NCBI GenBank assembly: GCA_046563655.1 | Contig: CM102283.1 | Location: 6,076,001-6,140,000, forward strand | Reading direction: 5' to 3' | DNA: 64,000 bases | DNA from: Yuukianura sp. NJ FZ-2021 | Lineage: Eukaryota | Shown here: piece by piece, positions 14,082-56,346 of the stretch | Layout: each line of letters begins with the position of its first letter | Position numbering within the stretch: position 1 is the first letter of the stretch | Translations under genes and position numbers: made by a program | The notes under the pieces: generated by a model | Database searches by the model: none | Told to the model about the DNA's origin: nothing | What the model saw: the letters and a program-made list of their open reading frames with translations, nothing else

Positions 14082-17000
14082 TTACCAAGATTCCTTTGGT
14101 TTAATGTTAACAATAATAGGAGGTCGCATTCCCTTGGTCGGATGAGCTTCCAGTGGACTTTGACCTTGACTTTCAAAAGACACGCGCAGAGGAACTGGAG
14201 TTGAAGCATTTCGGGTGTACCCGCTACTGCTCCCGGCTTGTCTTCCACTATGATGGGCCGTCGCAGGACGGCTTTTGCTTGTACTTGGTCTGGACATACT
14301 GCTGGAGCGCATGCGTGAAGGAACATCGCTGTCATCACTGTTGCTCCTGTTCAGATGCCCATTGACCGCTGCTTGAGCAACGACAGTCTCCTGGTCGTCG
14401 TCACTGTTGAGGTCGTTGTAAATTTGACTAACCATTTCTTGATTGAATTGGTGCCGAAACTGATCAAAGATGCTGCGTGACCGTGATTGGTCGGATTCAC
14501 TTCCATCTAAATCTTGTGACTGAACGGACTCTCTGCCAACTTCTTCTTCTTCCGATTCTTCACTTTCTTCATCCGAATCTTCAAAGGAGTCTGAACTCTT
14601 AGCTGACACGCCTTTCCGAAGAATGTATGGATTCTGAGTCAAGTGTTTGTCAGCATTGAGGCGAGCATGGAACTGGTTCAGAGCGGCTCTGTCCATTGCA
14701 ATCTGGGTACTTCGGTCACAAATTTCTACCCAGTGTTCATTGTGAGCCATAAACCGCTCTGTTCGAACTCTGTCTCGCCATACATCGTTATATTCCTAGA
14801 AAAAAAAGATTTCATAAAAATTAAGCCAAAAGACAAACAAACTTTGACTTTTCTGAGAATTTTGTGCGGTTTACCCCAAAAACTGCAAAGATTGCTTGTG
14901 CCACTTCGCGTAATTCTGCACATTCAGAACGGATAAAACCAAGCACCAGTTCTGACACGGTCGTTTTTTCAATTAAGTAAGTTCTGGATTTAGTGTGAAT
15001 TGACATTCGATAGAGTGCATAAAGTAGTTGGAGGCGGATGTCTGTGTCGAGTGCTGGAGTACGACCAAGGTCAAGCATAATGTCCAGAATGCCTTCTTGG
15101 ATTAAGAAATCTGAACAGCTTGGTTCACTTCCGCAGGTTCCCAGGAATACAACAACTTCGAGCAGTAGAGCTTCTTGGACACTTCGTTCATCTGAAATCA
15201 AATTCAAAATATGAAAAATTTTGAAAATTTTGAAATTTGGATTTTAGAATTTCACCTCCAGCGTGCGTTCTTATCCTTGGTGGTGGACGAGTAAGGACAT
15301 TTCGAATATACTTTAGTAGTTGATATCCTTGGAGAAGTTCGCAGAAATCGAGATCAGGCAAAGTCAAGTTTGAAAGTGTGCCGAGACATTCGACGACAAA
15401 TTCTGGATGGCTTTTGTCCCTTATGGATGCAACAATATTGGTGACTAATTCTGTAAACAGAACTTGTGTTGGTCCTTGATGTGTGGATATTCTTCGAATG
15501 ATTTTGACTAGAAGCGGATCCTGACGCTGGATAGCCACTTTGACCATTCGTGAGAGACGATTGTTGGCGCACATCACCATGGCACATCGTTTACTTGCGG
15601 CTAAATTCAAAAGCAAAGCGGCCGTTTCCATCTGAAATCCTCCTCCCGGAGTCACAACCTTTGCAATTAACTTAAAAAATACACAAAAATCAAAATTATT
15701 CAAATTATAAACTTTCAAAATTTCAGAATTTTCAACTCAAGATCAAAGGATTTTAGAAACTTACCTTCGGTATGATGTCAGCTCCAGCAAACTTTGAACG
15801 AACTTTGAAATCAAGCGAAATGTTGTACAGAGTCAAAATGCAATTTCCCTCAAATTCAGCATCCTCTGGAAAAAAAAGTTATTACAACTTACAAGCAAAA
15901 TGGAGATGCCACGCCACAATGACAAAATCGCATTCGCTTTAAAAAAAAACAAGTTTTTTCTTTTGGATTTACCAAAAAGTACATTGAATTTGTTGAGAAT
16001 GCCGTGACGAATCATTTTGAATCTCAGTTTTGTTTTAAAACTGAGATTGTAGTACAAGGAGACAAGGCTTAGAAGAAGGTCACGCGGTGTCGTTTCTTCT
16101 AAAAATCGTATAGTTTGTTCAACTATTTTCATGTCAATCATTTCTTGTACTGATTCATCATAGCAAGACAAAGTCAGCAGGAACGAAACAACAACCGTTA
16201 TGAGTTTGACATTTGACCTCTCCAGAGTCATCATCAGTTGCTGCACGAAACTTGTCGTTTTCAATTCTTTTGTAACAACTGCAGACTCCAGCATGTTCTT
16301 CACTATTTCAAAGGCAGCTGAAATAGAAAATGTTTTGTGAAATGCTAAAGTATTATAACTTTTTAACCAAAATTCTTCAAAATTTTGAATTCAAACGTGT
16401 GTTCTAACCTGCCAAAAGTGGATCTTGTTTTCTCCTTAATTCGGCCATTTTGACCTGCATTTTTTCCAAATCGGAGCGATGTTTCGGCGTAGCCGTTTCT
16501 GGATCATCAGCAAGTTCTTTCCGAGCACACAACTCGCCCATCCATTTGTCGTAGCGCGTTAATTCAAAGTCAATTACATCCAGTGTCACTGGAATGACTT
16601 TGTTACTGGTCAGAGCTGGATGAAAATCATGAAATCTTGTGAAGGACAGAATGACATTGAGCAGAATTGAAGTCAACTCCATCGATTTTCTGTAGTCCTC
16701 TCGGAGTGTTCGAAAAACAGCATTTAGCGCAGTATCTAAAAGTTTCATCATCATATTTTGATTTAGATCCATTGTTTTGAAAAAAAAATTAGGAAAATTT
16801 ACCATGATTAAAAACGGTGACCAAATTTTCTGAAGAATTTGTTAGCTTCCATAAACATCGACCTCCCTTGATCTTGTCCTGGAGTTCTTCATATAGCAAT
16901 TCAATGTACAACTCCAGGCTGTCCATTTTCACATCTTTCATGTCATCATTGTACACAGATTCATCATCTTCAAAGCATTCGGGAAACATCGTCACAGGTC

Positions 17001-17460
17001 GGTTTTCTCCGTCCAAGGTCAAAGTGGCCAGGCCATTGCGATCGTATTTCCGAGTTTTTAGAACTTCTAGAACCGTCACCACTTGTGGTATCAAATCTTC
17101 TGGAATGAATGGACATTGTTCCAAAATATCTTCGGTTATGGTTCGCAAGTTGGCGTCAGTTGTCAATCCTTCCAATCGGATCAACTTCCGGAACTCCTAG
17201 AAAAAAAAACACACAATTTTCAAAACGTACATTAGTAAAGGCTAGACATGTTGTGTGTATATCGCACTAACCTGTGTATTATCTTCGATGATGTCGCCAT
17301 ACGGTATTCCTGCAACAGAAATTTCAATTTCTCCACGGATTACCAAAATCCTACGCCGGGGATGCGGTTCAAACCGAAGTGTTTTAAAAGTGCGTGTCAC
17401 TACTTCCCGGTCTCCATCTTTGGATCCGGACAATTCAAATCTTGGTCGCAAGTTTAACAT
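14082..17460 (-). CDS. Kap3: Kinesin-associated protein 3 (KAP3/KIFAP3)-like, divergent, armadillo repeats
   Basis: Exons encode KAP motifs: LIRLEGLTTDANL, YIELLYEELQDKIKG, LREDYRKSMELTSILL, IDFELTRYDKW, YNLSFKTKLRFKMI, QDPLLVKIIRRISTHQG, EFVVECLGTLSNLTLPDLDF, LLLEVVVFLGT and FEQSGLWL-region/AHNEHWVE. It ends in an acidic, Ser-rich tail. A further 3' exon near 13.6-13.8 kb cannot be excluded. Confidence 0.8.
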
Positions 17461-18428: not shown

Positions 18429-19487
18429 TTACAGTCGACAGAGGAAAAGAAGGGAACATGCAAAGATGACGATGGCGACAAAGACAGGGCCGACTGTTTG
18501 AGTCAGCGGAACATCGTCGTAGGGATCGGCAAGCCTAGGTTGACCAGTGGTACGACGAGGTTTCAGTGGTGGTTTGGCTACCTCTGGTTCTATGATAGTA
18601 TCTTCTTCATCTTTCGGAACTGCTAGTGGAGGTAGCTGCGGAATATCTAATGCAACAAACGTATACCAAATTAGATAAATCAAATAGGAAATTGTAGCAA
18701 TTACAAGATTAGGTATTCCGTTGAAACCTCACCGGAAACATCTCCTTTTATTACGTAGATTGCGTTGACCTTTGGATTATCCCGGTAACCCTAAAAAGTA
18801 AAAGAATAACGTAGAAATAAAACAAAGTAAGGCAGCACACTGAAAAATTTACTGAAAACGGAAAAGCATACTTTGATAAATTCGATTCGGATTTTTCCTC
18901 CACGGATCTCAGACTCCTGTCCGTTGTAAAGCATCGTTTTGCCACCTCCAGTTACCTCGAACGGAACAATGTGATCGTAAGCCACACCATGTCCGACCTT
19001 CTCGTGGATGTCAAGGTCAGAAATTACCGTGTGGTCGCCGTTGAGCACAACATCAAATACCTAAACCAAAGAAACAAGTTAATTTTACAGAATTCAGGAT
19101 AGGCATGAAACAAAAGTGAACTTAGATGACCTTCATGTTGGGAGCGTTGAAGTAGACCTCAGAGAATTTGAGAACCAAGACATATTGACCTGGACCATGT
19201 TCCTCAACAGGGATTTCATATCCAAAGTTGGAATGGTGATACCGTTCTGTTTGATACAAAATATAATCGTTTGGGTCAACTCGACCGACGGCGATGAGAT
19301 GTTTTCCATAATCCGAAGCAATTCCAGTTTTCAGTGTATCCTTTTGGTAGTAAATTCCATGAATATCCGTATGAGCTTCTCCACCGCAATTAACTGCAAA
19401 AATAACTTTTTTCTCCAAACCAGCTGCCTCCAGGTAACAGCAAAGAAATATTAACGTCAAAGCCCACAGTTTCCGTTCTGGAACCAT
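18429..19487 (-). CDS. MLEC: Malectin (ER Glc2-N-glycan lectin)
   Basis: ATG at 19487 with a signal peptide. Motifs [37 protein letters not shown] and [16 protein letters not shown]-terminal TM ([21 protein letters not shown]). Four exons. Confidence 0.93.
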
Positions 19488-20289
19488 ACTCCAGGTTGAC
19501 CTATAGTATTTCCACACGTCAACAGTTCCGGTTAACCTAATTGTTTAAAATAATTAAAAATTTAAAATTTAAAAATGTCAAACTAATTCAAAATTAAAAT
19601 TATAAACCAGAAAACGAGAGGTGTTTACTTTTGGTGGTTTGAATATTTTGCCGATTCCCTCCCTCCAACACTTTACACCACCCTCATAGCTACTCAAATT
19701 CAAATTGCAATCGATTAATCGAAGAACAGCATCTAATTAATTAAAATCAATATTAAATAACATAAATAATTTAGTACATTTCGACCCTGAGTACATTACA
19801 CTTTTTATTTCATCATAAGGGTACATTATTATTTGGATGGACACCAGTTCGGTTTACAAATGGAATGCATTTCTTCAGCACTACCGCAACGCATGCCCAG
19901 CAGTTCAATAAATCATATCTAACTGCTAACATTTCCGAAAATTGACCTTGGAATTACACACTTCCATGGCTGAAGGTCAAACTATAAACTACGCTTCTAT
20001 TGTATTCTACAAGGTAACCTATTGGCGTATAACAATTTTGGAAAACTTCAGCCTAGAATACCCTGCTGGCTCATTGTAGTAAGCAGGAGTCCATGAAAAT
20101 TATGGCAATTTTTTTTTATAGAACAATGGCAACTGGTTTGCTGAGTAGGAATTTAACTGTAACTTAATTTGTTTGATCTCTGTCATAAAATAAGTAAATT
20201 ATTGCATTAAGTTCAGAAAAGCTCACAGTAAAGACGCTTTAAGGCAACTAACCCCGGTAAAACGAGAGTCAGATTCAGATTTTAGCTCC

Positions 20290-23200
20290 TTACTGCAACG
20301 ACGATTTTTTGGAAAAGCTTTGAAGACTAATGCTTGAACTGATGGCACTCCCACTAGTACTTGCAACTGGTCCACTTCCGTCTTCCATTGAACTTCGTTT
20401 AGTATCTTTCCCGCCAGTCAAATTCTTCCAGATTCTGGAGGGTCCGCTAAGACCATGACTACTTCGACATACTTCCAATTCGGCCATGGCCAGTGACAAC
20501 TGATGACTCAAATCATCATTCCGACACTCCGCTTCTGCCAATGCGATTTTCGTTTTGGCCAATTCGTTTTCCAATGGTTTCAGAACATCCTCTTGTGTCG
20601 GCTGGGGACTGCCTAGGCCAGTTGATCCAGGACTGGAACCACCCGACACTACTTCCCCGTTCATACGTTCCTTGTTTCCAGCAATTTGCAGAGCAGTTGC
20701 CACAAAAGAAGCACAGTTTTCACACAAATTCGATTGAAAGAAACTTGATCGCTCTCGAGATTTCTTCTGCTCGCCTTCCAACTCCGAGCTCAGATTCGTA
20801 CAAATCTGAAAATTAAACCAGCAACGGTGAAAGAAAAACGTAATGAAAGCATAAAACTTGAAATTTTATTCAAAATTTCGAAATTCAACACTCACTCTTT
20901 TGTATTCAGCGATTATAGTAGTCTTTTTCTCGGCTTCAGTGTCGTACATCTTCACTTCACGTTGAAAAAGTTCCTTGACCTGGAAAACAATTCAAAATTG
21001 TAGTACACATTTCAAAAAATGGAAAAGAGAGACTAAAGTTTTACCGAATTCGTTTCTTCTTTCAACTTTTGATTAAACTCTTCAATTTCGCGAAGCGCCG
21101 TTTTGGTTTTCCCTAACTCCTCTTCCACATGGGCCAAAGTTTCTTCTGCTGTTAGCTTCCCAAGCACCAAGTTTGTAATCATTTGCTCCGTACGTAACAT
21201 ATTCTCAATCAGCATTTTGTTTTCCTTCTGAGCCCGTTCTAACGGATCCACATAATTCCTCTCTTGTTCCTTTATTGCCAGGTACTCAGCTTCATATCGC
21301 TTCAGTTTCTTGACTCTTGTCGCATGAGCATACTTCATATGCTGAGCAGTCACCTCAGGGTTTCTATATTTCTTCGGTAAAGTAATTCGGAAGAATTTGA
21401 GAATTCCTTCGAAGTCAAGCATCAATAAATCCTTTCTTGAAGCCTATCACAAAACATCAATGTTCTATAATAAGAATAACTCAAAAGTTTTTGGAGGATT
21501 TTGTAAATTCTTACCATGAGAAGCGCAACGGCAACCTGGAAAAGCACCTTCATTCCATCGAGTAAAAAAGAGTCCAGTACACGAAAGACGAATATAAGTG
21601 GAAACTTGGCTGTGTAAAGCGTAAGGAACCATTGATTGGCATACCTGAAAAAAAAATATGAAATTATGAAAAGTTTAAATAAAGTTATAGATTCATTGTG
21701 GATTTCTACTTACATGTGGGACTCGATACCCAATTCTTGAAAGTGAGCCCAAAGCTCTGGAATTTGATCCTGGAACAACAGTTAGTTTGTTTTGAACTTC
21801 GAACTTCCAAAAGTATTGTCGAATGTAAACTAAGGCTAACCTCGACGAGTCTATCTAACTGATAAAGTTTTAGGCGGAGATTTTCGAATCCATCACGGTA
21901 AAGATCTCGGAACTCATAGTTGAACATGATTCGTACAAGGAGACAAAACGCCTGTTCCTCTGGCATCTGAAAATGTAGTAAAATTGAAAATTATGAATAA
22001 CTCTATTGAGACTCGAAGTTGAGAGTTGTACCTGTAAGAGCAACGCAGCCGCAATAAAGCTGATTCCCTGGCAGTAACCAACTTCAGCATCATATATAGC
22101 ATAGCCTTTGGATATTTTGTACAATTGTTCTTGTCCAGTTCCACCGGACTCACGAAAGTAATCGTTGGCCGGAAAAGTTCGCGTGATGTCTCGTAAAATT
22201 ATTTCTTCATTCGGACATTCCTTCGTAAGCAAAGTCCTGTAGGTGTCCATCATTGCATTGTCATCATGACACCCTGACAGTCTCAGCCAGATTTCTCCAC
22301 GCACGGTATCTAAGATCAGATTTCACAAAATTTTGTCTGTCGTAAGGCTACATACTATATTACACACAACTATACAATTTATAATAAATGAAATCCTACC
22401 TGGAATTCCGTTTCTAACAAGCGCTGACAGTTGTTTCGGACGAGTTGTAGCCATTGGTGGCCAATTGGAGACAAGCTCACTCCAAGAAGCTAACTGCTCA
22501 TCACTGCAGTGTTTTGAAATTTCTCCCATTCCGCTTTGGAGAGGCTCATCATCATCTTGTTAAAAATTAATATAACATATAAATCTAAACTTTTTCGTAT
22601 GAAGTTGAATTAGACTGAGGCTGTACTCACCCGAATCTTGTTCCTCGTCTTTGGGAGTGTCCAGGTCAATTGAGTTTGAGCGAATGAATGAAGTAAAGTT
22701 AAGGTTAAAGTTAGCACGACTGCGATCAACTTCCCCTTTTGGCGTATTGCGTATCACCTTGTATAACACTTCTCCATTCTTTGTGCCCTCAATCTGGAAA
22801 TAAATCACGTTTAGGATAACGCAGAATTGATAATTTCTGACAAAAAGGAATCTGGAAACTTATTATTTTACCTGTTGCAGAGACAGAAGGAATTGTTGAG
22901 TAAAATGATATTTGCGAACCAATATCCAAAATCTTTCAGTAGATGGGTAAACCTTGGCTTCTGTTTCCAACACAAATCGGATTGGTTCTTGAATTCCCTG
23001 CACACAAAGAACGATTTACATTTGAGCACTGAAAAATGACATAAAAGATGTGTTTAGCGCTAACCTTGATTACAAGATCTACGGCCACTGTGAAGAAGAC
23101 GTGGGACTCCTTTGGAGTCTCGTGGTTCAGAGATTCAAAAGCAGGATCATTGGCATCCCACTGCCCCGTGATAACATAAGTCTTGCCTCCTTGACTTTGA

Positions 23201-24529
23201 GAACCTATTGACCAGGACAGCATCTCAACAAGTTGCATATCTGAATGGCGGACACGTCTTCCAGGACTCAGAAGTAAACCAAAGCATCGTTCAACTAATA
23301 AGTCTTCTTGAGGGTGCGGAAGTTGCTGGACAGTGAGGACAATGTGTTTCGGCACAAAACTCCGGATTTTAAAAACTCCTTTATCACGCGGGACGGAACT
23401 GTAGTTTCCCTAAAGAAATTAACAATTATAAGAAAAGTTGAATCTTTTTGCATTTGCAAATACTTTGAAGTAGTTTTGCAAATTATAGGCAGAGACCTTG
23501 CCGTCGTCTTCCTTCAGTTCCAGTGATACTTCAAACAAAACATCAGTTGTGGGTAACGAGTCACCGCTACCATCAGAAGTGGTCGATTTTTCGCCAGACG
23601 CTGTAAGCGAAATACTTCCTCTAGACGGTTGACGAGAAGCGGATTTGGAGGGAGACGAAAAAGCTCGAGCAAAGGTTGCAAAAACTCGTCCAACCTGAAT
23701 TAAAAACAAGTATTCCGTTAGTACTTACAATCCTGACGCTTAGAATTGTTTTAAAAGCTTACCGCTTCCGGAACATCACATCTGAAAACATGACACTGAA
23801 AGATGGCCTGTTCAAGGGTATCTCCATGCGAGCATGTAAATGCAAAACACTCCCAATCCGGCGTACCAGATAGACCACGAGCGAAGAAAATGATTTGACT
23901 AACTCCAAACCGACTAATTTCCAGCTGATTCTCTTCTTCGTAAACGCTAAAACCAAAAACAATAGTTTCATTGTTGATTTAGATCTTATAAGCGGGAAAA
24001 TGTTAATCTAGGTAAATTATATCAAGTTACATAACACTCCCATCGCAATACAGTGGAACAGATACGGAAACTTGAATCAAATTATCAATTGGTTGTTTAT
24101 TCAGAAAGCCCATTACGCGGTGAATTTCTTGTTCACTTCTGGGTTCCTGATAAGAAAGAAAACAAACGCTAGAAGACAATTTTTGAATTGAAAATGAAAT
24201 ACTCTCACTTGAACAGTTGCAGCACCAAGGTATGAAATACAGTGAAATATCGTAAAGTCTTCTTCATACTGTTCCAAGTCATCATTCGCGGATGGAACTA
24301 CATCTGCTGGTGGATTCGGTATTTCATTGGTCGTATCATCCATGGATTCTTTAGTAAGTTCCGTCTTCGCTGGACTAACGGAAGTTGAGTCGTCTGTAAC
24401 AGCTATACCGCTGTCGTTTTCCTGCCCACGTTCTTTTTCATCTATTATATTGCTTTCCAGGATTTTCTTTTCGGACCCACTTGAATTGGCATCTTCCGTT
24501 TGTAGTAATCCAATGGCGTCGGACTCCAT
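20290..24529 (-). CDS. RABGAP1: Rab GTPase-activating protein 1 (GAPCenA/RABGAP1), PTB + TBC + coiled coil
   Basis: PTB start (ISYLGAATV). Middle domain ERCFGLLLSPG...DMQLVEM...FFTVAVDLVI. TBC domain with R-finger ILRDITRTFP and Q-finger GYCQG. C-terminal coiled coil ELAKTKIALAEAECRNDDL. Multi-exon. Confidence 0.92.
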
Positions 24530-26172
24530 TATATCTTGTCGAAATCTTGAGCTTAATCTTGAATTCCTCGTTCTCTACTGGAGCTGCAACAAGAAAAAAG
24601 ATTGTTAATTATTATTGAGATTCTCCAACAGACAAGGAAACATTTGATTTTGTTAAGCTTAAACCGTTTACCGACTGCTATGCTTCAAAGACCAACTGAA
24701 AACGTCATCCGTAGTACTATCTTTCCAATTTCCAAAGATGAGATAAGTCCAGTTGATGACTAACACTGATGAGATGACTATGGTCCCGTCCAGCGTCCAG
24801 TGTTGTTTACAGATCTACAAAAGTAAATAGAAAGTGGGCGTAATTTACTATTATTAGATTCAAACCTATGCAAACAAGTACTTAATCTAATGACAGAGTC
24901 CTACACAGATGTGGTAACTTTTAAAATAAGGTTAATGATATTCCTAAACCTGATTTGCTATAAGTTGAAGCCGATATCCAGCTGATTCCAAACTCCAGCA
25001 GATGATCTTGTCAAACTTTAACTGTGCAATCCTACCCCCGCCTACCCTCTAACATTGGCAACTTTTTCATGAAAACAAAACGCCTCTTCTGGAATTTGAG
25101 ATTTAAATGACAACAACATTAGCAATCATAATGGCATTCCAATCCAATCCAATCACAGTCACATTTTCTGTTGCGTTTAAGGATTAACTATAATCATTGT
25201 TACCGCTCAGTTTCCTCACTCCTGCCTTGTCGCGAGGCTACAGCACGTGGCCACAGTCCAACCTACTAAAGCCTAACCTGAGTTGGCAACAAAAGTAGCC
25301 ACATGAATATAGCCACCCGTTGTGTTAGCAACATAGCTTAGCCGTGCGGCTACAAGGATGTTCATTCGACCTTACGCCAACCATACTTTCTTAGTGTCTG
25401 TCAAAAATTCCAATTGTGAGTTTGAATTTCGTGGAATCTTAAATCTGCAACATTTTAAGGTCCAGTAATCTGCCGCCACATCTCCCAAATTATTGTTAGG
25501 GGTCATTGACCTTATTCTACAGGTCAAGTTCCACAAATTACGTGCATTGCACACACCATGTACGCACTTGTGGATACAAATAACTACAAGTTACCAGGAT
25601 CATTGCTGTGTCATATCATGATAATGGAACGTTGAAATATCAGCAAATCAATCCGGTATCAGTAGAGCTGCGTTAATTAAAAACGTTAAATTAAAATAAA
25701 ACTCAAGTTTATAAAAGCACAGCCGAAAGCTGGCAGCTAAATTATGTTTTACATTGAACGTAGTGCAGTATGTCAAGTAAATCCGATAATTTTCTTATGT
25801 GCATGAAGCTTTGACGAAGGTCATGTAGGCATTTTGAACTCAATTTAACACGAGCGCTTGCGCCAATTAAAATACGATATTCAATCGCTGCCGTTTCGTG
25901 GCTGGATGACACGGCACAAGACAATGGTTTCTCTTCCTTATTGTGTGACATTAATTTAGGTCCAAGGAGAAAGTCGGTGTGGATTAGTTAATTACTCGAG
26001 CGCTAATCAATCTTTTGTGTCGGTTTGTTTGATTCTTTTTAGAACAAGTGCCGATTAGAACTTTCTCGGCACTGCGTCAAAAGTTAAATTAATGACCCCA
26101 TTCTTTACGGTTCAATTTTACGACAAATTGTTTCTGGAAGGACGAAATAAGGAAGCCGTTTTGTGATCAGCC

Positions 26173-28728: not shown

Positions 28729-29384
28729 TCAACAACGACGACCTTGTGGTGGGCAGCAGCTCATGGGCATACAGCAGCCTGGTGGTGGACAGCATTGATT
28801 TCCGTTTCCACCTTCGTCTTCCTCGCAGCAGATCACTGGAATACAGCACACCTTCGGTTCCTTCTTCCGTGGTGGAGGCGGGATCTCTGCAAAGAAACAA
28901 AACCGAATTAGGTCAAAGGTCAAATCAAATCAAAAAGCCAAGAAATTAGATACTAAAACTCACCACACACGATGTTGACTGGGGGCAACTGGAAGACACA
29001 ACATTGACCTTGCTGTGGAGGCGGCTTCGTCTTGATCACGATTGCTGAAAAAATAAAAAGTCAGAATTAAAATCCACAATTTCCAGTAAAGTGTGAAACT
29101 ACGGTAACCCAAAATGTCCATCGTCAAGTCCACTTACGAGGCTGAAAAAAAAAGACAGACAATCAGTAACATACCAAGTGAAAGGTCAATACAGGTCAGT
29201 GACCCTAGACTTACGCAACACAATGGAGGACAGCAAGGAGGCGGGCAGCATGGGGGTCTATATTGGACAGAATTACAAAATCAGTACACCACATGATTCC
29301 TAGGAGGTAGCAGTAATTGTCAATTGAAACTTACGGGCAGCACCCATTGTTGTTCATGCTCATTCGTCCACCGCCACAAGACAT
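28729..29384 (-). CDS. Cys/Pro-rich small protein, copy A (111 aa), 5 exons including a 4-nt micro-exon
   Basis: Exons 29384-29335, 29257-29215, 29141-29138, 29044-28964 and 28886-28729, all GT-AG, total 336 nt. Protein: MSCGGGRMSMNNNGCCPPPCCPPPCCPPLCCPPIVIKTKPPPQQGQCCVFQLPPVNIVCEIPPPPRKKEPKVCCIPVICCEEDEGGNGNQCCPPPGCCMPMSCCPPQGRRC. Confidence 0.85.
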
Positions 29385-29476
29385 GTTGATTGAGAAGACC
29401 GAAAGGTCAATGAACTTTGGAATTTGTAGGAGAAAAGGAGGGAGAGACGTCTGATCGAGGTGAAGGCTAGAGAGAG

Positions 29477-29582
29477 ACTGAGGCGGGAAAAGTGAAAATC
29501 CGGCCTTTTATAGATTTTGTGAGGTCAATGACCCCGGTGCTTTTCGCGAGGAGTAACTCTTTACTCTTTCTCACGTTGCCCC
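29477..29582 (-). promoter_or_regulatory. Core promoter of Cys/Pro gene A
   Basis: TATAAAAG (29512-29505), Inr TCAGT (29481-29477), IR1 AGGTCAaTGACCC (29522-29534), and an upstream block shared with copy B that contains CGTGAGAA (29575-29568). Confidence 0.7.
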
Positions 29583-30030
29583 AGTTTGAGATCGCGCAAT
29601 TGCAAAACAATAGCTAAATTTCCAAAACGATAGATTTTGATTAAAAATTCAAGTTTTTAAACATTGAACAAGCATTTCCAGCATTATTTTCCATTACTTT
29701 TAATTAATTCGTACAATCATAAACCATTTTTAATTTTTATGGCATTATCAGTTATCATTTTAATAAGTTGCCAGTTTTTGAATACCAAAAACACTCTCAT
29801 TCTAATTCTCGACATTACTGAAACGTTTCAAAAACTATTGCAATTAATTAAAAATACAATCAATCATTTAATAACTTCCAGCAACAGATTAAAAGTTGAA
29901 GAGTTTTATTTCTTTTCGAATTGAATGATATGATTTTTACGTAATAGTAATAGTTATGGTATCACAAAACAATTTGGACATTTTTTAAAGTTGTACTTTA
30001 AATATATTGGGAATTTGGTGACGGTCAAAC

Positions 30031-30724
30031 TCAACAACGACGAGCTGGTGGTGAACAGCAGCTCATGGGCATGCAGCATCCAGCAGGCGGACATGGTGGA
30101 CAGCAGTTGTTTCCACCCTCTTCATCTTCGCAACAGATCACTGGAATACAGCACACCTTCGGTTCCTTCTTGCGTGGTGGTGGTGGGATCTCTGCAAAAA
30201 CATAAAGCAGAATTAGGTGCAAAGTCAAAGGTCAAATTCTGATTCAGGTCATTATACAAAAACTCACCACACACGATGTTGACCGGTGGCAACTGGAAGA
30301 CACAACATTGACCCTGCTGTGGAGGCGGCTTCGTCTTGATCACGATTGCTAAAATTGAAAATCAGTATTAGTTTTACTCAAAAAGTAAATTTTTTAGTTG
30401 TAAAATCGTCGATACACCAAACCAAACGCTGTCAATCAGCGCGTGTAGTTGACTTACGTGGCTGAAAAGTCAAAACAAACACTGATTAGTAAATGAAACC
30501 ATTATTATTGAACAAGAGGTCATCAGAGGTCATTGACCCCAAACTTACGCAACACATTGGAGGGCAGCAAGGCGGTGGGCAGCACGGAGGCCTGCAACAA
30601 AGAACATGACAATCAGACATTGACATTTTCGAAATCAAACTACTGTTGGTCATGTCAACATTGTCGAAACTTACGGGCAGCAGCCATTGTTCATTCCACT
30701 TTGACGTCCACCACCACAAGACAT
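30031..30724 (-). CDS. Cys/Pro-rich small protein, copy B (112 aa), 5 exons including a 4-nt micro-exon
   Basis: Exons 30724-30675, 30591-30549, 30461-30458, 30348-30268 and 30191-30031, total 339 nt. Exon sizes 50/43/4/81 match copy A. The central region is amino-acid identical with synonymous changes. Confidence 0.85.
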
Positions 30725-30813
30725 GTTGAATGAGAAGACCGGAGGGGTCAATGAACTTTACAAAAAAAAATGAGGAGGGAACGACGTGTATTCGGTGTGA
30801 ACGATGGAGAGCG

Positions 30814-30895
30814 ACTAAACCTCGCGCGTAAGAAATCACTTCCTTTTATAGCGGTTCTCAAGGAGTAACTTATTACTCCTTCTCACGTCGCCCCA
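30814..30895 (-). promoter_or_regulatory. Core promoter of Cys/Pro gene B
   Basis: TATAAAAG (30850-30843), Inr-like TTAGT (30818-30814), and the block aggagtaacttattactccttctcacgtcgcccca shared with copy A. Confidence 0.7.
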
Positions 30896-31142: not shown

Positions 31143-31858
<716 letters not shown>

Positions 31859-33876: not shown

Positions 33877-36800
33877 ATGGTCACTCGGAACGGATTCTTG
33901 TCATTGGTCACAATGCCGTGGATCCTGCATTATTCGTGCCTTCTGCTACTAATTTCTTTTACAACTCCAACTCAAGGTATGACAAAAGCAAACAATTTGA
34001 GCATCTTCAAACTGTCTTCAAATCAAACAAATTGTTTCGTTTTGGGTCAAAGATGTCTCCCTTCTGCATTTTCACACCTTTGCGATTTATGGCTACCATA
34101 AACGCTTCTAGTTAGAGCCCCACCGTTGACAACTTTCACAATTGTCAATTGAGTTCTCATCTTTCCAAATCTCCCAATTTCAAAAAAGAAAAAATTAACA
34201 CAAAAGTCAGTCCTCGTCTTTACCTTTTAGACAAAACTTTTAGATTTCAGAAAATTTATCGACAGGTTTACAACTCTGACGCCTTTTCCAAAAACTTCTA
34301 AAATTTATAACCATTGTCTCCGAAAAATTGGAAAAAATTCATTCCAGGTGAAATTTATGGCTGTCTTGAAAGTTATTTTGTTCAGCTTTGACTTTTGGCC
34401 GAAAGATTTTTGTTCTTTGAGCTTTGGCACAAATCTGATCGTATGGAATTTCACCTTCGGCAGGATTTTCATTAACTGAAACCAGAACTATGAATTTAAC
34501 ATGTAAATGATTCAGATTCGTTGACCTTTGACCTTTAGCTCAAATTTGATTTTGTGGAAATTCACCTCTGGTCAGATTTTCATTAGCTGAAATTTAGTTA
34601 TGGACTTAATGTTGTCAATGATTCAGAGTGGTTGAGATTTGACCTTTGACCTTCCCTGGGGAATGTCACGGGAAGAGATTATGAACGCCTTGGTTCCATA
34701 TGTCCAAAGTTCACACGTTTCTGGAAAATGTTAGGCCTGTTCCTGGTAGAGGGTTGAAAAAAGGCATAGGGTTTGCATGTGTCCGGGCGACGGACGGGGT
34801 CGTGGGATCCAAAAAAACGAAGAACACGGAGCAGATGTGTGCAGAGATGGGGTGGTGGGGTTTTGGGGGCGGGGTTGTAGACTTCAGGAGCCACAAGTGT
34901 TTATTCAAGGGCCCCCTACGAATTCTGTAGCCCTTAGAAGTACTTTGTACAGAGCAGAGTACAGAGTCCTGTGTGTATCCCCTCACTTTAACTCTAAGTA
35001 CCCTGTACCCTGCTGCCTAGACACAAAGAATGGCCGTTGGACTTTGGAAAACGTTCGATATTTTCATCTGCATCTGCTCCTCCAAGCTTACATTCCTACA
35101 AACTACACAACAAAAAAGGAGCCAACCACCCCATGGATTAGATGGTTCTGGTCACACGCATAGTAACTTCTGTACAATTGTGGACAGTTCTGTACAGTAT
35201 TCTAACCGGAAAACCGGAATGACCACCTTATCATTCCATACCATAAACTATTCAAAATTCAAACGGTCACTCTTCCCGGAATTCTGAAAAAATGAAATTT
35301 TGAAATGATCTCTGCGGAAATTCAAGTTTTGTTGATGCTTGGATGTTGGATGACGCATGCGCAGAACATGCATCGCTGCTTTTTTGTTGCTGATAATCAA
35401 AATATGAAAGTTAAAAATACGAAATTTGAAACTTGGAGCTTAGGACATGTTAGCGAAGAAACCTCCATTTGTCCTTCATCACTTGACTTTAGAAAAGCGT
35501 CTTACGTCTGGATTCTTTGTGTAAACATTAGGTTGAAGCGATGTCAAAAACATATCATCCGAGGACATGATACTTTTGGTTGCTCACTTTATCTAAAACT
35601 GCTCAAATTAAATAAACTATTAAACTTACAACTTATGGTGTTACATACATGTGAGGGCACAACTCTAATTCTGGAAGGGGGAACATTAATTACTCTGGAG
35701 TTGGCAAAATACCAAACAATTGACTCAAGTCTATTGCGAACGTGGGACAAAACTTTATGACTTAACGTCAATATCCAAATGGCGTGACCCCTATCATTGT
35801 TTTACTTTAAAAAAAAAAGAGTAGGACTTTGTTTTTTAATTTTAAAGTGCGTTTTAATGGATCTTCTGGAAGATGGTGATTTCGGAGACTTCCGCTACTT
35901 GAGAGTATCCATGGGAACGGAAGACACTTCCTGTTTCCTTCAACCCTATCATTCTATGACCTTCCTCATTTCAAACTAGCTTTTCAACTATGCAATCAAA
36001 AAATTTATATAACACATTTTTTCAAAATGTTGATGGAAAATGAAATTTTGATTTCTTTTATTCTAGGTCTCTCGTGCTCTCCAAATCCATGTAAGAATGG
36101 AGCTCATTGTGTTCCAGGAAGTCGCTACGGAGGAGACTCATACTGCGAGTAAGTTAATTTTTTAGCGATTCAATTTTGAACAAGTTAGCGGTGCTTTACT
36201 TTAAACAAACATTAGTTAAAGGCAAGTGCTGATGGAAATGTTCAAATCCACAATGTCACTATTACTACTACGCTTCAGATTTTGAGCAGTTGCCCTTTGA
36301 CATTTTTAGTACTGCCGACGTGTCATTTTCTGCATGTGCAGATTTTTATTGCGAAATGTCAAAGTGACATTCGACATTAAGAATTGTGCCGATGAAAGCA
36401 AAAAATAGAAACTTTAGGAAATCGGGAAGAAATTTTGAACATTGGACTTTCTTCAACAATAAATTCGTCCGAAGCAACAAATTTTCTAAAAAATTCATAA
36501 TTCGAATAGAAAAAAAATGCACTCCCAAATAACTTTTCCTGCTTATGCACACTGACCACATGAAACTTCTTGCTCATGCGTACTGACCGAAGGCCAGTTT
36601 CTGTTTGTGCGCACTGGACGATGACCACGCAATGTTTATATTTTGGATTAAGTTGTGGTTATTGGTGACCTCGGATGGTTGATGATGCACAAGTAGGCAT
36701 CGGAGGTCACATTGGTTTTATCTGTAAGGGCCCATGTGCAAAGTGTCTGTTTCCTGAGGGATATGCACCATTGTTGGTGTTCTGGTGGTGGCAGAGGGTG

Positions 36801-39800: not shown

Positions 39801-42800
39801 TCTTTTCAAAATATCTACAAGTAGCTGACCTCATTCCCAATTTTTGGAAAAATAGTAATTTTTTCCCGCGTTTTACAATTTACACACGCTTCCCATACCG
39901 CCGTACCACCACACCACATCCGCTTTCCTGTGTTACAATCCGCAAAAACCGAGTTTTTGGAAAAGCTTAATCTGGATTTGTGGAAAAATCTCAAATTTGA
40001 AAATTGCGATTTGATGAGAAAGTGCTGATAACAGCCAAAAGTTTTCAAAAAATTCAAATGCTAAAGAAAAACTACGCCGTCAAAACGGAAATTTTTCTGC
40101 AACTAACTGAAATATTTGGCTTTCAAAAACGACAAAAACGACAAGCAAATTTTTTTTCGAAATGCATTCAAAAAATATGTATTTTCAAATTTCAGATGCC
40201 CAAATACCTATGTTGGAGAATACTGCCAGTATCCAAATCCGTGTCACTCTTCACAAAATCGCTGTGAACACGGAGGATCGTGTAAACCCGTGCTGAAACC
40301 GAAAGCGGCGCCATCTTTTGCTTGTTCCTGTCCAGTGGGGTACACTTCAACATTTTGCGAACTGGAACTGTCCAATGCCTGTCAGTCCAATCCATGCTCC
40401 AACAATGGCTTATGTAAACTGTCAACACTGGAAGACTACACTTGCGCATGCGGAAATGGTTACCGTGGAAAACACTGCGAGACGATTGACCAGTGCTCGA
40501 TCAGTGGCAGTTCACCTTGCAAAAACGAGGGAAACTGCGTCCCAGATGATTCGATGCGTGGATATCATTGTGTCTGCGACGAAGGGTTCAAGGGCCCTAC
40601 ATGCCTTTCTGACATCAACGAATGTGACAACAAACAAAACTGTCTCCACGGATCTTGCCAAAATGTTTACGGATCATACAAGTAAGAAAAAATCAATTTA
40701 AAAAAATCTCTTTAAATTTTCAAATATTTTTTCTGAACCCTCCAAAACGCCACAAAATTTCCCCGCTACTTTGAAATGGCCGTAATTTCGAAAAATCTTT
40801 TCTTGCCGCCAAGACAATCCGTCATTACCGGTAATGTATCCGGCTTCACTTTCAGAGCCATGATTGGTTTCCGGTAATCAGAAAAAGGCGGGAAACGTAA
40901 CCAAATTACACAAAATATAAAATGTACAAAGTGGTTCAGAATAATTTTGTGTTTTAAGTCACAATAGCGCTGATTCGGAACAATTTCTAGTAAACAAGGG
41001 TTGATTGGGGTGAGTTTGATGTGAGATCACGTGCCTCCAGGGGATTTTTAAAAAGAAGAGGGAACGTTTGAATTCCATTTAACGTAGGTTACACATAGCC
41101 TAGTCAGAAGAAACGTGAGGCCATCATAATTGAAAGGAACGAGGAATTAATGTTCGTTGGGTTTGTTGCAAAAGGGGTTGGTGAAGGGGACGTTGATTAT
41201 TCATTATTCATAAGGGACCCTACAGAGCCCTTAAAGGGGCCAAAGGGCCCTCTCAATTCAACAGATGCTTTCAAACAATACGGAACCGTTAGTCCTAGGT
41301 TGTTAAGTTCCAACGGCTCGCTCTCGTTTCCCTTTAAATTGAAATCGGTGTAGAGTCATTGTCTGGTGTGTTGGAATTGAGTAATGATCAGTTGGCCTTT
41401 GACCTTTTGTGGCCCTGCTTAATTGAGAAACCACGCAACTGACCCTAAACTGTACGCAAATGACCCTTAAGTCCCTCTATCTGTTTAAGGAATCACGGTT
41501 CCAAGACTTTGTCATTAAGGGACCCCCTCCAAGAACAATCTTTGGCCCTTCATTAGACATATTTGAAAAAGGGCGCTCAAAATCAAACAGATCATTTATT
41601 TTCAAAACCATTAAATCGCCGGTCGTGCTTGAATTTGAGCTCATCCGTTCCCTCAAGTTGTTCGCTCCGGGAAAACTCACGACGGCCACGGAATGTCGCT
41701 TTTCCGACTTTTGAATTTTTCCGCGCAGTTTCCAATTGGCTCCCATTGTTACTCTTGTTCCTTTGTTTTCGTCAATGAACAATTTTTAAATTCGGAACCA
41801 GAAAATAGCTGGGCTAAAGAAACGTTGTTCCAAGTTATTATGCTAACAATGGAACCTCATTTTCACAATCCAAAAACAAGCATTCCTCAAATTGCACCTT
41901 CAGGCTATACTTTAAAAGTCGCAAAATTCGAATTTAAACTTCACAACTTATCGAATTTTTGAATTTTGTTTTTGAAATTTTAAGTTAACTTGTTCAAATA
42001 CAATTTCTTAGGATATTTTTGGTTACGAGGTTGATGAACCGTGTCATTTTCGATTCCATTTTGTACTTTTCCTTCATAAAAAAGTTAATTAGAGGGTAGA
42101 GTTTTTACTGCCGGTGGAGCGTATACTAGGTAGTTACATAAGATGACTGAAGATGATTCAACCCCCCCCCCTTCTGTGCCACCCCCCCCCCCTATCCACA
42201 TCACCCCCCCCCCCTCCTGTTACGTGGTGTGTATACGGTAATACTGGCGTGTAGGTTAATGTTATTGCTTTGTTTCCAGGTGTAAGTGCTTCGAAGGGTA
42301 CACTGGGAAGACGTGTTCAGAGAAATTCATTCCTTGTGAGCCCTCCCCCTGCCAAAATGGCGGAAGCTGCAAGAGAACAGGCAACCTCACCTATGAGTGT
42401 ACCTGCCCCAGAGGTAAGCACGTCCATTATTCCTTCAAAATCCATTTTCAAAAAACTTTTTCAAAAAGACCCCACTGTACTTTCAAAAAGTCCCCGAAAA
42501 GGGACCAGGGCCCTTAACAAATTCAATGAGCTCCAATTCCCTCTGAAGTGAAGATGAAAAGCTCCCTTGAAGGAGTAGATCCAAAGTGCTCTAGCGTTTC
42601 TGCTCATGCGTGAGCGTAATTGGAGATGATTGGAACGAACGTTCATTATTCGACTGCAAACGCGCGTTTTATGTTCGAAAAGTCTTGGTTTACCCTGAGC
42701 TAAGCCCGAGAAAACATGAGCGCTTGTGTTCAAATTTTCTTGACATGAGCGTCTCTTTTCAAAAATTTGAGAGGTTAACATGGACCTTGTGTTGAAAATG

Positions 42801-45800
42801 TTTAGAACATAGGATATTGTGTTGAAATTGTTGAGAACAGAGCATGAGCGTTGATTTTGAAGGTAGAGTGTCCTTGTGATGGTAAGTTAATTGGGCTGAA
42901 TGTGGTGGGATTGAAGTGACTACTAACTGGGTTCAGTCAACCGCGGAGCCTGGGGCTCTGGATTTCGAAATGAAGAAGATGCTGCACGGAAGCTGCTTGC
43001 AGAAGATGATGATCAGAATGCGAGATGCCTAATGTAATTTTCTGAATGTAGATCTCTCCATTTACAACAACTTTTGGAACAGCTTCATTGATCTTCCCAC
43101 TTTCAGATACATAAGTTAGGCTAACCTAACCTAATCTTTCGGAAGCATTTGGTCTGCCTGACGTAGTTACTCCCTCTAGTCAAATTTTAAGTTCAGAATT
43201 TTAATGTTGTTTGAGGAGAGTCAGATTTTTCAGAATTTTAATGTTGGAATTTCAAATCCTGTTGATCTTTACCATTAATCAAAAGTCTTAACGTTGAACT
43301 TTCCCAATTCATCAAAATTTATGTTAATTCTTGAACTTTTACAGTATTAATCAAAATTCCTTGACTTCCACGATGACTCTGAAGTGGATTTTGTGAAATT
43401 TCAGCTAATGAGCATGCGTGAATGTCAGGAAATGCGGAAACTGCTCCGCCTCTAGAAAGAGTCACTTTCACCCGGAGGAGGAGCTTGGGAACCCGTTTTC
43501 GGGTAACAGGACACCCATTACCGGTTGGAAGGCGTTTGGGGGGCAGCAAAACTCAAACCCCCTCCCCCATGTTTTGAAGGGGGGGGGGGTTGAAACCTTG
43601 TTTTTTGAACACGGGGATTAAGGTTCTCAGCAAATCCAGTTTATTGAAAACGAAAAAACTTGTTAATCCGCTCAATTACATTAACATTTTGGAGAAACTG
43701 AGCAGTGTGCGTCAAGGTTATGCTCTGATATAACTTTTGTTAGGAAAGTGTCAATTAAGTTTCAAAAAGCGTCGAGGTCAATGACCTTTTTAACTAAAAA
43801 TTCAAAACAAGTTCAATTTTAGCTGTCAACTCAGTAGCAAATTTTGGAAAAGTTTCCCAGGCCCTTAAGCAATTGGAACTAAACCACAATTTTTGTTCTA
43901 ATTTGATTAAAAGGGACCATGGGCGCCTTAATTTTTTTGTGGGAGATTTGAAAAAAAGAGGAAGATGAGTAACTGGATTTGAAAATTAAGAAGGCGCGGG
44001 TTTTTGATCCAGAAAGTGAAAAGCGTCGAGGCGTGTTTCCTTTAAAGTCGTGTGGAGACAATGGGACACTTCAATTGTAGTGGTGATGAGAACTTTCCCA
44101 TGACTTAAAAACAGTTGAAAATGCTGGAAGTGAGTCAGTTCTTGCATGCATAAGGTCTTTATGAAGAGGAAGATGCGCAAGATTGAGTCAGAAGATGCGC
44201 AAGACGTTACATGATGTTGGAGGAGGTGAAGAACCACTTGACACCCACCACCACCACCACAGTTGAACTTATTGCATGAAAGTCGTACTGCCAAAACCCC
44301 TTAATTTCAAACTCTCCCTCCGAAAAAACAAGTCCATAGGTTATGAATGAACTCTGACAAAATGTTCCCACGCTCCTGAAACTCCGCCGCAACTCTTTTT
44401 CCCTCTAATCCTCTTCTCTTTCTTTTTGAATTTTTGTGTCCCCGCCAATTATGCCTCCAGATGAAGTCAAAAGTTGGCGCCAAAGCTTGTCTGCAGTATT
44501 GCGGTTGATGGATTAGATCAAATTAGGGCTTCTGCGTAAAAAGAAGCAAAGTAGTTACTGCGCAGGCCTGAAACAAGACTTTTCCTACTCAGAGTGATGC
44601 AAAACAAATGTACCTGCGTAAGGGGATGAAAAATAGACTTATTTTAACAGAGGGATGAAAAATAGACCTTAATTTGCATAGGGGGATGAAAATGAAAGCT
44701 GTGACACTAAAACATAATGAAATGAAAATTAAAAAACCCCAAAAAAAGTTTTTTGAACAATTTTTTTTTATTTTTTCTGAAATTTTGTAGGTTTCACTGG
44801 CATTCATTGTCAAGAAAACATTGACGACTGTGACAAGCACAACTGTCAAAATGGCGCCACTTGCCTTGACGGAATTGGTTCCTACACTTGTCAATGTCCA
44901 CCTTCATATACCGGGACTTACTGTCAACAAGACATTGACGAGTGCTCTCTACGGCCACAAGTATGCAAAAATGGCGCCACTTGTACAAATACCATTGGAG
45001 GCTACAACTGCATTTGCGTCAACGGTTGGACAGGACATGAGTAAGGATTAATGACCTCAAAAACTCAATTTTTCGCAAAAAACTAACTTTTCTCTAAAAT
45101 ATTCTGAAAATTGACTTTTTATGATATCTTCGCAGTTGCCAGGAAAACATTGACGACTGCGCAGGAGCAGCATGTCTCAATGGCGCCACTTGCTACGACC
45201 GAGTAGCCGGATTCTACTGTCAGTGCCCCCTGGGGAAAACAGGCTTGTTGTGTCACCTCACGGACGCCTGTACGTCCAACCCTTGCTTCGAGGGGGCAAT
45301 GTGCGAAACGAGTCCAATTGACGGATCGTACGTCTGCTCTTGTCCCAGTGGCTACAAGGGGATGAACTGTACAGTGGATATTGATGAATGTGCTGAAGGT
45401 TGGAAAAAATTTAAATTTTCCCACCACAAAATCTACAACAGGAAGCATGTGATGATATAAAAGTCGATTTTTTAAATTCTTGAAGGTTCCCCATGTGAGC
45501 ATCATGGCCTCTGCGTAAATACGCCTGGTTCTTATCGGTGTTCCTGTCAGGAAGGATTTACGGGAACGCGGTAAGAGATCAACATCTTTTTCGCAAAAAA
45601 AAATTGCTAATTACAATTACTTTTTTGTTTCAAATTCCATAAAAATGTTATAACTTTTTTCAGGTGTGAAGTAAACATCAATGAATGTAAGTTTTACTGC
45701 TTCTTTTGTCATGCACTTTAAGTTCAACCGAGCAGTTTTCAAAAATTAGTAACATCAAAACAAATTCGCAATGGCGAAAAAACTAAATTGTAGAAATAGT

Positions 45801-54800: not shown

Positions 54801-56346
54801 GCTGCTGACAACAATGGAAAAACGGCGCTTCATGTAAGGATTTTCAAAAAAGAAATGGAAAGAACATTTTTGAAAGTTTAAAACTGAAATTTCAATTTTG
54901 TGATTCGTTTTGTAGTGGGCTGCTGCAGTTGACAGTGCCGATGGCGTCCAACTTTTGTTGACTCACGGAGCCAACCGAGACGCTCAGAACGAGCGTGACG
55001 AAACGCCGTTGTTTCTTGCCGCTCGAGAAGGAAGCTACCGACTCTGCAAAATTCTGCTGGACAACCACGCTAACCGTGATATCTCCGATCACATGGATCG
55101 CTTACCCCGTGACATTGCCCATGAGCGCTACCATCACGATATTGTCCGCTTGCTTGAAGAGCATGTCCCACGGCCTTCAAATTCAAACCAAATCCACCAA
55201 CCACAAGCCATTCAACATCAGCAGTCCAATACTCAAGGTTTCTCGGGCCAAGCTGCTGCCCAATCAGCGTTGCCGCCACAACCTAAACCAAAGAAACGCA
55301 CTTCCAAACCAGCAATCGATAAGCCAGAAAGTGATACTGGCAGTGGAATGATGGTGCCCAGGACACCACGCAAGTCCGCTTCTTCTAGGAAGAAGAAATC
55401 TGGAGATTCTTTGGTCAGCAGTGGCGGATCTCCAGCTTCGTCGACCACAACGGACCAAAATTCAATGAGTCCTCCAGACCAATATGGCCATCATGGATCA
55501 CTCTGTCCAACAATGTACCCCATTCCACAAAACTCTATGGCAATCTCACAACCTAACCTTAATTCCCATGACATCATGGGTCAAGGTCACCATAACCCGG
55601 CATATCTCACGTTAACTCAAAATACAAAAGCACCGCCATCTTACGAAGACTCTTTCAACAACAAAGCCATGTCGTTCCATAGCCTCCATTTTTCAAATCA
55701 AAATCCATATGGATCTCAACAGCAACAACCAATCCACCATCAATACTCCCCGTCATACCCAAGTCCACCACAGTCATCTCAATTTACCCCGTCTCCATCC
55801 GGAATGACCTACGTCGGCTCCCCACCCGCCGCACCACCACCCCCTACCACCAATTCACCCAATAAGAGACCTTGTCTCCCCACATCTCCAACACACATGG
55901 CTGCCATGCGCGCAGCAACTCAAGCCAAACATGGTAGTCAACTGCTCAACACCACAACGGCCTTTGACTACCCCCCACCATCCGTTCTCAGTCAATCCTC
56001 CCCCATGTCCGGCACTTCCAGTCATACTGTATACTACAACCAAAGTAACAATACAATTTCCCCCCACTACCCCACACCCCCCTCCCACCACTCTTCTGAA
56101 GGTCATCCAAGTCCACATTCAATCCAGTCTCTACATGCCTTCTCAGAGAACTGTCCCACTCCAGAGTCACCGCAGTGGGTAGGAGAGTCGCCTGGACAAT
56201 GGTCGCCCAATTCGCCCCATTCGACGTCAGAGTGGTCAGCTGACTCACCTCCATCAACCACGAGCATGCGCTATGGAACCACACTTAATGCTATGCAAAT
56301 GGCCTATGCGAACAGTGCACATGCAACGGAAGGTGTGTTCATTTAA
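33877..56346 (+). CDS. N: Notch receptor, full length
   Basis: Signal-peptide exon 33877-33976 splices in frame to 36067-36148, 40196-40681, 42280-42413, 44791 and onward. Manual splicing gives 36 EGF repeats, 3 LNR, NOD/NODP, TM ([22 protein letters not shown]), RAM (ITWFPDGF), ankyrin repeats and a C-terminal PEST (YPTPPS, PESPQW...[17 protein letters not shown]). About 32 coding exons. Confidence 0.97.
34445..34653. repeat. Diverged duplication (2 x about 95 bp, period about 110 bp) in Notch intron 1
   Basis: tggaa.ttcacct...gattttcatta.ctgaaa...aatgattcaga...tgacctttgacctt occurs twice. Confidence 0.7.
42162..42214. repeat. Three homopolymeric C tracts (10-11 nt each)
   Basis: C runs at 42162-42171, 42182-42192 and 42204-42214, just upstream of Notch exon 4. 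Confidence 0.9.
44619..44697. repeat. Short tandem repeat, about 30-bp unit, 2.5-3 copies
   Basis: gggatgaaaa(a)t occurs three times at about 30-bp spacing in a Notch intron. Confidence 0.7.

Follow-up and report, generated by a model that had tools for sequence, protein, structure and literature searches.

A probable frame-essential 4-nt coding exon in two tandem paralogues of the arthropod Yuukianura sp. NJ FZ-2021

We analyzed a 64,000-nucleotide (nt) stretch of the genome of Yuukianura sp. NJ FZ-2021 (GenBank assembly GCA_046563655.1, contig CM102283.1, positions 6,076,001 to 6,140,000 of the forward strand), hereafter called the window and numbered from its first letter. The minus strand of the window carries a tandem pair of paralogues of a small five-exon gene, designated copy A (29384 to 28729, from ATG to stop) and copy B (30724 to 30031). 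Both paralogues probably contain a genuine internal coding exon of only 4 nt, CCTC in copy A (29138-29141) and CCAC in copy B (30458-30461), which would be included in the main protein-coding mRNA. We favor this interpretation because the reading frame needs the 4 nt, the splice signals around them are complete and conserved, no other internal exon solves the frame in both copies, the motif is rare in the window, and the flanking introns acquire lengths that suit the rest of the gene.

The micro-exons lie in the contexts tttttttcag-CCTC-gtaagtg (29141-29138, minus strand) and gacttttcag-CCAC-gtaagtc (30461-30458, minus strand), as a preliminary description of this DNA had stated. Its account of the frame was likewise borne out when we translated the spliced models. 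In both copies the last codon of exon 2, TGC, is complete (phase 0). If exon 2 is joined directly to exon 4, the junction continues as CAA TCG TGA, so that a stop codon falls 9 nt into exon 4 and each copy yields a product of 33 amino acids (aa). With the 4 nt included, the junction instead encodes Pro-Pro followed by IVIKTKPPP, and the frame remains open to give proteins of 111 aa (copy A) and 112 aa (copy B). The micro-exon supplies a Pro codon and the first base of the following Pro codon, and the one difference between the copies within it (CCT versus CCA) is synonymous, again as described previously.

The need for additional nucleotides between exons 2 and 4 can be deduced from substitution patterns, with no splice model assumed. 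Over the whole coding sequence, copies A and B have a synonymous divergence (dS) of 0.62 and a non-synonymous divergence (dN) of 0.066, and the resulting dN/dS of 0.11 indicates that each is an old gene maintained by selection on its protein. We then counted synonymous and non-synonymous codon differences in each frame of the flanking exons. Exon 2, read so that its final codon is complete, has five synonymous differences and one non-synonymous difference, compared with 0/7 and 0/6 for the alternative frames. Exon 4 shows three synonymous and no non-synonymous differences when read from its third nucleotide, and 0/3 in each of the other frames. Because the two flanking frames are fixed independently of one another, the mRNA must, by this pattern, carry 1+3n nt (1, 4, 7 and so on) between exons 2 and 4.

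To list the internal exons that could provide these nucleotides, we enumerated all exons of length 1 mod 3 that keep the frame open and leave introns of at least 40 nt on both sides. There is one solution in copy A (CCTC) and there are four in copy B, and CCNC is the only one common to both. CCAC is also the sole candidate with consensus signals among the four solutions in copy B.

Both copies have the signals expected of such an exon, namely a 3' splice site with a branch motif on its upstream side and a 5' splice site immediately after it. We compared the sites with general consensus sequences and with the eight donors of the gene pair itself. All eight donors in the micro-exon gene model read GTRAGT. 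The donors that adjoin the micro-exons are both GTAAGT and match the CAG-GTAAGT consensus at seven (copy A) and eight (copy B) of nine positions. The micro-exon acceptors end in CAG and are preceded by 15/17 (copy A) and 13/17 (copy B) pyrimidines, at the top of the range of 10-15/17 found over the eight acceptors. In addition, a CTRAY motif occurs in 8/8 introns with the branch A placed 14-25 nt from the 3' end, compared with 0.10 occurrences expected per 30 nt.

These signals are conserved between copies whose introns are otherwise diverged. The interiors of the introns are 46% identical (111/239), whereas the unit TTTTCAG-CCNC-GTAAGT is identical at 16 of its 17 positions and is the best of the 183 17-column windows that can be drawn between the exon 2 donor and the exon 4 acceptor. 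At a background identity of 46%, at least 16/17 matches would arise in a given window with a probability of 4.5e-5, which becomes 0.008 once all 183 windows are corrected for. Immediately downstream of the proposed junction, the initial 34 nt of exon 4 are identical in copies A and B, and the three changes in the exon as a whole are all synonymous.

The arrangement of an acceptor, 4 nt and a donor is also beyond chance in the two copies. Allowing up to one mismatch, CAGCCNCGTAAGT has three matches in the 64-kb window compared with 0.12 expected, and none of 100 shuffled sequences reached three. The exact matches are the two micro-exon sites, and the third (4385-4397) carries one mismatch. A broader search of both strands for a pyrimidine-rich YAG, a spacer of k nt and GTRAGT, with k from 0 to 12, returned three matches at k = 4 and zero or one at every other spacing, with 0.40 expected per spacing. 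Two of the three are the micro-exon sites, and the other is antisense inside Notch. This look-alike, ccaccattag-AGGA-gtgagt, lies on the minus strand at 54377-54380 in a Notch ankyrin exon, and we take it as the chance background for such motifs.

The coding part of exon 1 spans 29335-29384 in copy A (ATG at 29384-29382) and 30675-30724 in copy B (ATG at 30724-30722), both on the minus strand like every feature of the pair. Exon 2 is 43 nt long (29215-29257 in copy A, 30549-30591 in copy B) and encodes CCPPP pentad repeats. It is followed in copy A by intron 2a of 73 nt (29142-29214), which has a GTAAGT donor and places the branch A of its CTGAT motif (29162-29166) at -22, and in copy B by intron 2a of 87 nt (30462-30548), which has a GTAAGT donor and places the branch A of its CTAAT motif (30485-30489) at -25. 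Beyond the micro-exon, intron 2b of copy A (93 nt, 29045-29137) contains the branch motif CTGAC at -17 as well as a T-rich tract and ends in CAG, and intron 2b of copy B (109 nt, 30349-30457) contains two branch motifs, CTAAT at -20 and CTGAT at -14, and ends in a TAG acceptor. Exon 4 is 81 nt long (28964-29044 in copy A, 30268-30348 in copy B), encodes IVIKTKPPPQQGQCCVFQLPPVNIVC in copy A and is identical at 78/81 positions between the copies; its initial 2 nt finish the codon started upstream. A 24-nt probe from the start of this exon matches just copies A and B within the window. The coding parts of exon 5 (28729-28886 in copy A, 30031-30191 in copy B) include the TGA stop codons at 28729-28731 and 30031-30033, respectively.

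Intron lengths under this model are 77, 73, 93 and 77 nt in copy A and 83, 87, 109 and 76 nt in copy B, in order. Omitting the micro-exon would leave a second intron of 166 nt (copy A) or 196 nt (copy B), compared with 73-109 nt for the introns that flank it. The micro-exon model is favored in this respect because all four introns are then short. We could not trace the exon to an internal duplication: comparison of intron 2a with intron 2b by blastn gave no match in copy A, and in copy B the best match was a T-rich stretch of 20 nt (E = 0.01) accompanied by two 7-nt matches, which does not support a duplication.

These features suggest how so short an exon could be spliced. Each of the short flanking introns (73 and 93 nt in copy A, 87 and 109 nt in copy B) has its own donor, branch motif, T-rich tract and YAG acceptor, and each could consequently be recognized as a unit, by intron definition. 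The acceptor AG and the next donor are only 4 nt apart, and U1 and U2AF would probably be mutually exclusive there. Because of this crowding, the two introns would most likely be removed one after another, and either order should generate the same product, exon 2-CCNC-exon 4. Inclusion would add Pro-Pro, complete the fourth CCPPx pentad and shift the frame by +1 into that of IVIKTKPPP. CC pairs occur at residues 15, 20, 25 and 30 and each is followed by PP, a period-5 pattern that the Pro-Pro reading continues. Our better guess is that inclusion is constitutive or nearly so, because both splice sites of the exon are strong, the portion of the protein that is most conserved is encoded downstream of it, and the human coding micro-exons of less than 10 bp that were tested and whose length is not a multiple of three (non-3n) were constitutive.

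Several points weigh against this interpretation. We infer inclusion in the mRNA from genomic sequence. The strength of the conservation statistic hangs on the neutral rate that is assumed: at a background identity of 58%, derived from a proportion of synonymous differences (pS) of 0.42, a calculation by hand gives about 1e-3 per window, which fails the correction for all windows. Conservation is judged from one pair of paralogues, copies A and B, and no orthologue or further member of the family was found in searches with single-exon sequences. The lone CCT/CCA difference is a weak sign of coding constraint. The U1 duplex energies used below to compare donors depend on a U1 5' end that was entered by hand. 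Finally, a GT donor 4 nt past the end of exon 2 produces the identical frame and lengths, 111 and 112 aa, in both copies. This donor belongs to a set of routes that restore the frame in both copies and go beyond those named in the preliminary description, the others being two further donors (GT at -5 and GC at -2) and four acceptors internal to exon 4.

We considered the possibility that the 4-nt exon exists but is used alternatively. Its omission would bring in the stop codon after CAA TCG, leaving either an unstable mRNA or a CCPPP peptide of 33 aa, and the output of the gene would be gated by tissue or stage. In favor of such a switch, this stop is present in both copies, and alternative use is common among very small exons elsewhere. 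In Drosophila, 283 of 411 coding micro-exons considered with their flanking exons (68.9%) are alternative (PMC8042270), and micro-exons in general are prone to skipping (PMC9929638). The skipped-frame stop, however, overlaps codons that are already constrained by the main frame, so its conservation is uninformative. There is no regulatory hint in the sequence, and both splice sites of the micro-exon are of consensus strength. Moreover, the most constrained part of the protein, exon 4, lies downstream of the proposed switch, and non-3n human coding micro-exons of less than 10 bp have been documented as constitutive (PMC9929638). We therefore regard alternative use as unlikely. Still a little less probable is its fuller form, in which transcription would be ongoing and the 4-nt exon would act as a regulated gate, by stage or tissue, between the 111/112-aa protein and the 33-aa CCPPP peptide or a decaying mRNA, an arrangement that would have been kept since the duplication dated by dS 0.62. 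If true, the gate would operate in a Cys/Pro-rich gene pair that has a dense array of nuclear-receptor-type palindromes in its promoters and introns. The preliminary description had offered either a constitutive exon or an on/off switch; a genuine, frame-needed exon was backed by every sequence test that we ran, and the switch gained nothing from them.

The donor 4 nt past the exon 2 donor requires no micro-exon at all. A single intron of 166 nt (copy A) or 196 nt (copy B) would be removed, GTAA would be kept in the mRNA, and the protein would read CC-VT-IVIK. In addition to the shared frame noted above, GTAA is the same in copies A and B, and donors shifted by 4 nt of the GYNNGY type are the most frequent class among minor tandem donors in human RNA sequencing (RNA-seq) data (PMC8055015). 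The presence of the site is nevertheless automatic and uninformative, given that any GTAAGT donor inherently has a second GT at +5/+6. The sites themselves, GTCTAG in copy A (29205-29210) and GTTTGG in copy B (30539-30544), match the consensus at 3/9 and 4/9 positions, have a pyrimidine at +3, and form a U1 duplex of -2.4 kcal/mol compared with -5.4 kcal/mol for the overlapping GTAAGT donor. Two of the four positions from +3 to +6 differ between the copies. This model also leaves unexplained the branch motif, T-tract, CAG, 4 nt and GTAAGT conserved inside the intron of both copies, and its VT would interrupt the CCPPx pentad pattern. For these reasons we give the +4 donor little credence as the main route. 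Since GYNNGY shifts are documented among minor donors, a minor VT isoform may exist.

The remaining routes, and error in the gene model, are very improbable. Enumeration of single GT-AG introns that leave the C-terminal frame open gave 8 in copy B and 26 in copy A, and those common to both copies use GT donors at +4 or -5, or the main donor with acceptors 14, 20, 32 or 56 nt into exon 4. The GC donor 2 nt upstream of the exon 2 donor was seen by eye, outside the GT-AG enumeration. All of these combinations do leave the C-terminal frame open in both copies, the acceptor 14 nt into exon 4 giving in-frame products of 106 aa (copy B) and 105 aa (copy A). Against them, the -5 donor (TGT-GTTGCG) agrees with the consensus at 2/9 positions and pairs with U1 at -1.3 kcal/mol, and the acceptors within exon 4 would remove 14-56 nt from an exon whose first 34 nt are identical in the two copies and whose changes are synonymous only; three of these four acceptors also lack a pyrimidine tract. 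Misassembly is an unlikely explanation, since copies separated by a dS of 0.62 have the identical structure.

An included 4-nt exon has precedents. Human MPC1 has a constitutive 4-bp coding exon whose inclusion was proven by reverse transcription-PCR (RT-PCR), and TNNI1, KSR1, TMEM237 and MUSK contain other non-3n coding micro-exons of less than 10 bp that are constitutive by sequencing of RT-PCR products (PMC9929638). The Yuukianura exons resemble that of MPC1 in being 4 nt long, coding and non-3n, with a strong upstream 3' splice region, a 6-nt consensus donor and conserved flanks (PMC9929638). In contrast, the MPC1 exon lies between long introns and depends on an exon-definition "island" formed by 67 bp of the upstream intron and the 6-bp donor, whereas the introns flanking the exons of copies A and B are only 73-109 nt and suggest intron definition, with inclusion that we infer. 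The host also differs, being a small Cys/Pro-rich arthropod gene without a known family. In plants, ultra-short constitutive micro-exons can be as small as 1 nt, as in APC11 and VPS55. Lengths that are not multiples of three account for about half of the plant exons of 15 nt or less, and such exons are usually missed or mis-modelled in annotation (PMC4674806, PMC8831610). The plant exons are similar to ours in that exons of a few nt are essential to the frame and have conserved GTRAGT donors, but they belong to ancient, widely conserved housekeeping genes and are backed by RNA-seq and RT-PCR (PMC4674806, PMC8831610).

Two other known systems have parts in common with the paralogues. As in GYNNGY tandem donors, the exon 2 GTAAGT has a second GT 4 nt downstream, the textbook layout of a donor shift of this size; the known shifts, however, disrupt the frame and give minor products sensitive to nonsense-mediated decay (PMC8055015), whereas the exon 2 shift, spliced straight to exon 4, would restore the frame from a site that is weak and non-conserved. 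Recursive splice sites, or ratchet points, likewise have an acceptor and a donor nearly back to back and make stepwise removal of the two halves likely, but in the known sites AG and GT are juxtaposed, no exon is left, and the introns are very long (PMC13149111). With 4 nt between AG and GT and flanking introns of 73-109 nt, the Yuukianura sites fall outside that class. The micro-exon of copies A and B thus probably joins the known constitutive tiny exons rather than forming a new category, since proof already exists for constitutive exons of 4 bp in human and for exons of 1 nt in plants. By the same token, the statement in the preliminary description that exons this short are rare is fair, although constitutive exons of 4 bp and even 1 nt had been published. 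What is distinctive is the short-intron setting and the retention of the exon in two diverged copies.

If confirmed, these would be frame-essential 4-nt exons of an arthropod that standard gene finders and short-read aligners would miss, and overlooking them would yield a truncated or frame-shifted gene model or a false VT variant. As a contrast to MPC1, the pair could show how intron definition handles an exon too short for U1 and U2AF together. The two paralogues also act as an internal control, the arrangement having been kept while neutral sites largely diverged.

The encoded proteins contain 23-24 Cys and 27-28 Pro residues (about 21% Cys and 25% Pro) with 10 CC pairs. We saw no hydrophobic stretch at the N-terminus of the protein sequence, and secretion by the classical route is probably excluded because of this. 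We can only guess at a structural role, which might involve disulphide links or metal binding. Pentads of the CCxPx type characterize the high-sulphur keratin-associated proteins of vertebrates. By its features, the atlas cluster closest to the proteins is 'keratin-associated protein 5-8-like', with a score of 0.84 that counts as a lead only (below 0.9). Like keratin-associated proteins, the products of copies A and B have CC pairs followed by xPx pentads, but their exon 4 and exon 5 peptides have no Pfam match and no sequence homologue was found, and the likeness is probably one of composition only.

Homologue searches were made with single-exon peptides from exons 4 and 5. Pfam returned no family for any of three exon peptides at E values up to 10. 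No homologue of the exon 5 peptide was found among longer proteins at E up to 0.01, with 16 candidates that share words with it. A phmmer search of 1.84 billion representatives with the exon 5 peptide gave one match, a repeat protein of 546 aa (P0001), which we judged unrelated on reading its sequence. In metagenomes, a scan with the exon 5 alignment of copies A and B produced 596 pattern matches, none of which was confirmed, and a degenerate IVIKTKPPP pattern matched one locus (L001, 1917-1942). The latter is a GC-rich, bacterial-looking reading frame ending ...GVIVIKTKPPPSARRN, and we rejected it as a chance match. Literature searches for CCPPP and for 4-nt exons found nothing relevant among the papers listed.

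The promoters of the two copies are also similar. A TATAAAAG box is located 128 nt upstream of the ATG in copy A (29505-29512) and 126 nt upstream in copy B (30843-30850). Just upstream of this TATA box is a conserved minus-strand block (29549-29568 in copy A, 30861-30880 in copy B) that consists of GGGGC[A/G]ACGTGAGAA followed by an inverted repeat. The arms of the repeat in copy B are AGGAGTAA and TTACTCCT with a 4-nt spacer, and those of copy A match at 7/8 positions.

A second inverted repeat, RGKTCANTGACCY, occurs at eight distinct sites in the window (14 strand-matches) compared with 0.06 expected. Five of the eight are in the gene pair, at 29193-29205, 29404-29416 and 29522-29534 in copy A and at 30527-30539 and 30745-30757 in copy B; the others are at 25500-25512, 43775-43787 and 61098-61110. 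The sites in the two copies occupy matching positions, in the 5' untranslated region and 9 nt downstream of the exon 2 donor, and the extra site in copy A lies within a 26-nt promoter insertion. The start of intron 2a is conserved because the intronic site is there. We take RGKTCANTGACCY to be a one-base-spaced palindrome of the kind typical of sites for the ecdysone receptor and other nuclear receptors, and hormone control of the two genes is a guess.

The direct repeat TGACCTTTGACYY, a one-base-spaced arrangement of nuclear-receptor half-sites, has five occurrences compared with 0.03 expected. These are at 28910-28922 (intron 4 of copy A), 30222-30234 (intron 4 of copy B), 31650-31662, 34522-34534 and 34640-34652. 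The pair near 34.5 kb is within an apparent local duplication of about 120 nt. The intronic copies resemble a repeat with a 7-nt period and may be repeat-derived instead of binding sites.

Elsewhere in the window, Pfam matches on open frames outline neighboring metazoan genes at about 40100-56350 (plus strand), 14000-17200, 19100-23400 and 1995-2855 (all minus strand) and 57600-63700. The domains identified by Pfam are those of Notch (EGF, LNR, NOD, NODP and ankyrin), kinesin-associated protein KAP (KAP3) and malectin, together with RabGAP-TBC, the kinesin DUF3694 domain, the C-terminal part of a tyrosine kinase domain, MADF, adenylate kinase and G-patch. The host appears to be an arthropod with no close relative among the named insects of the searched library, since the LNR/NOD exon of its Notch gene shares 47-49% identity with the best named insect proteins and 64% with an unnamed record.

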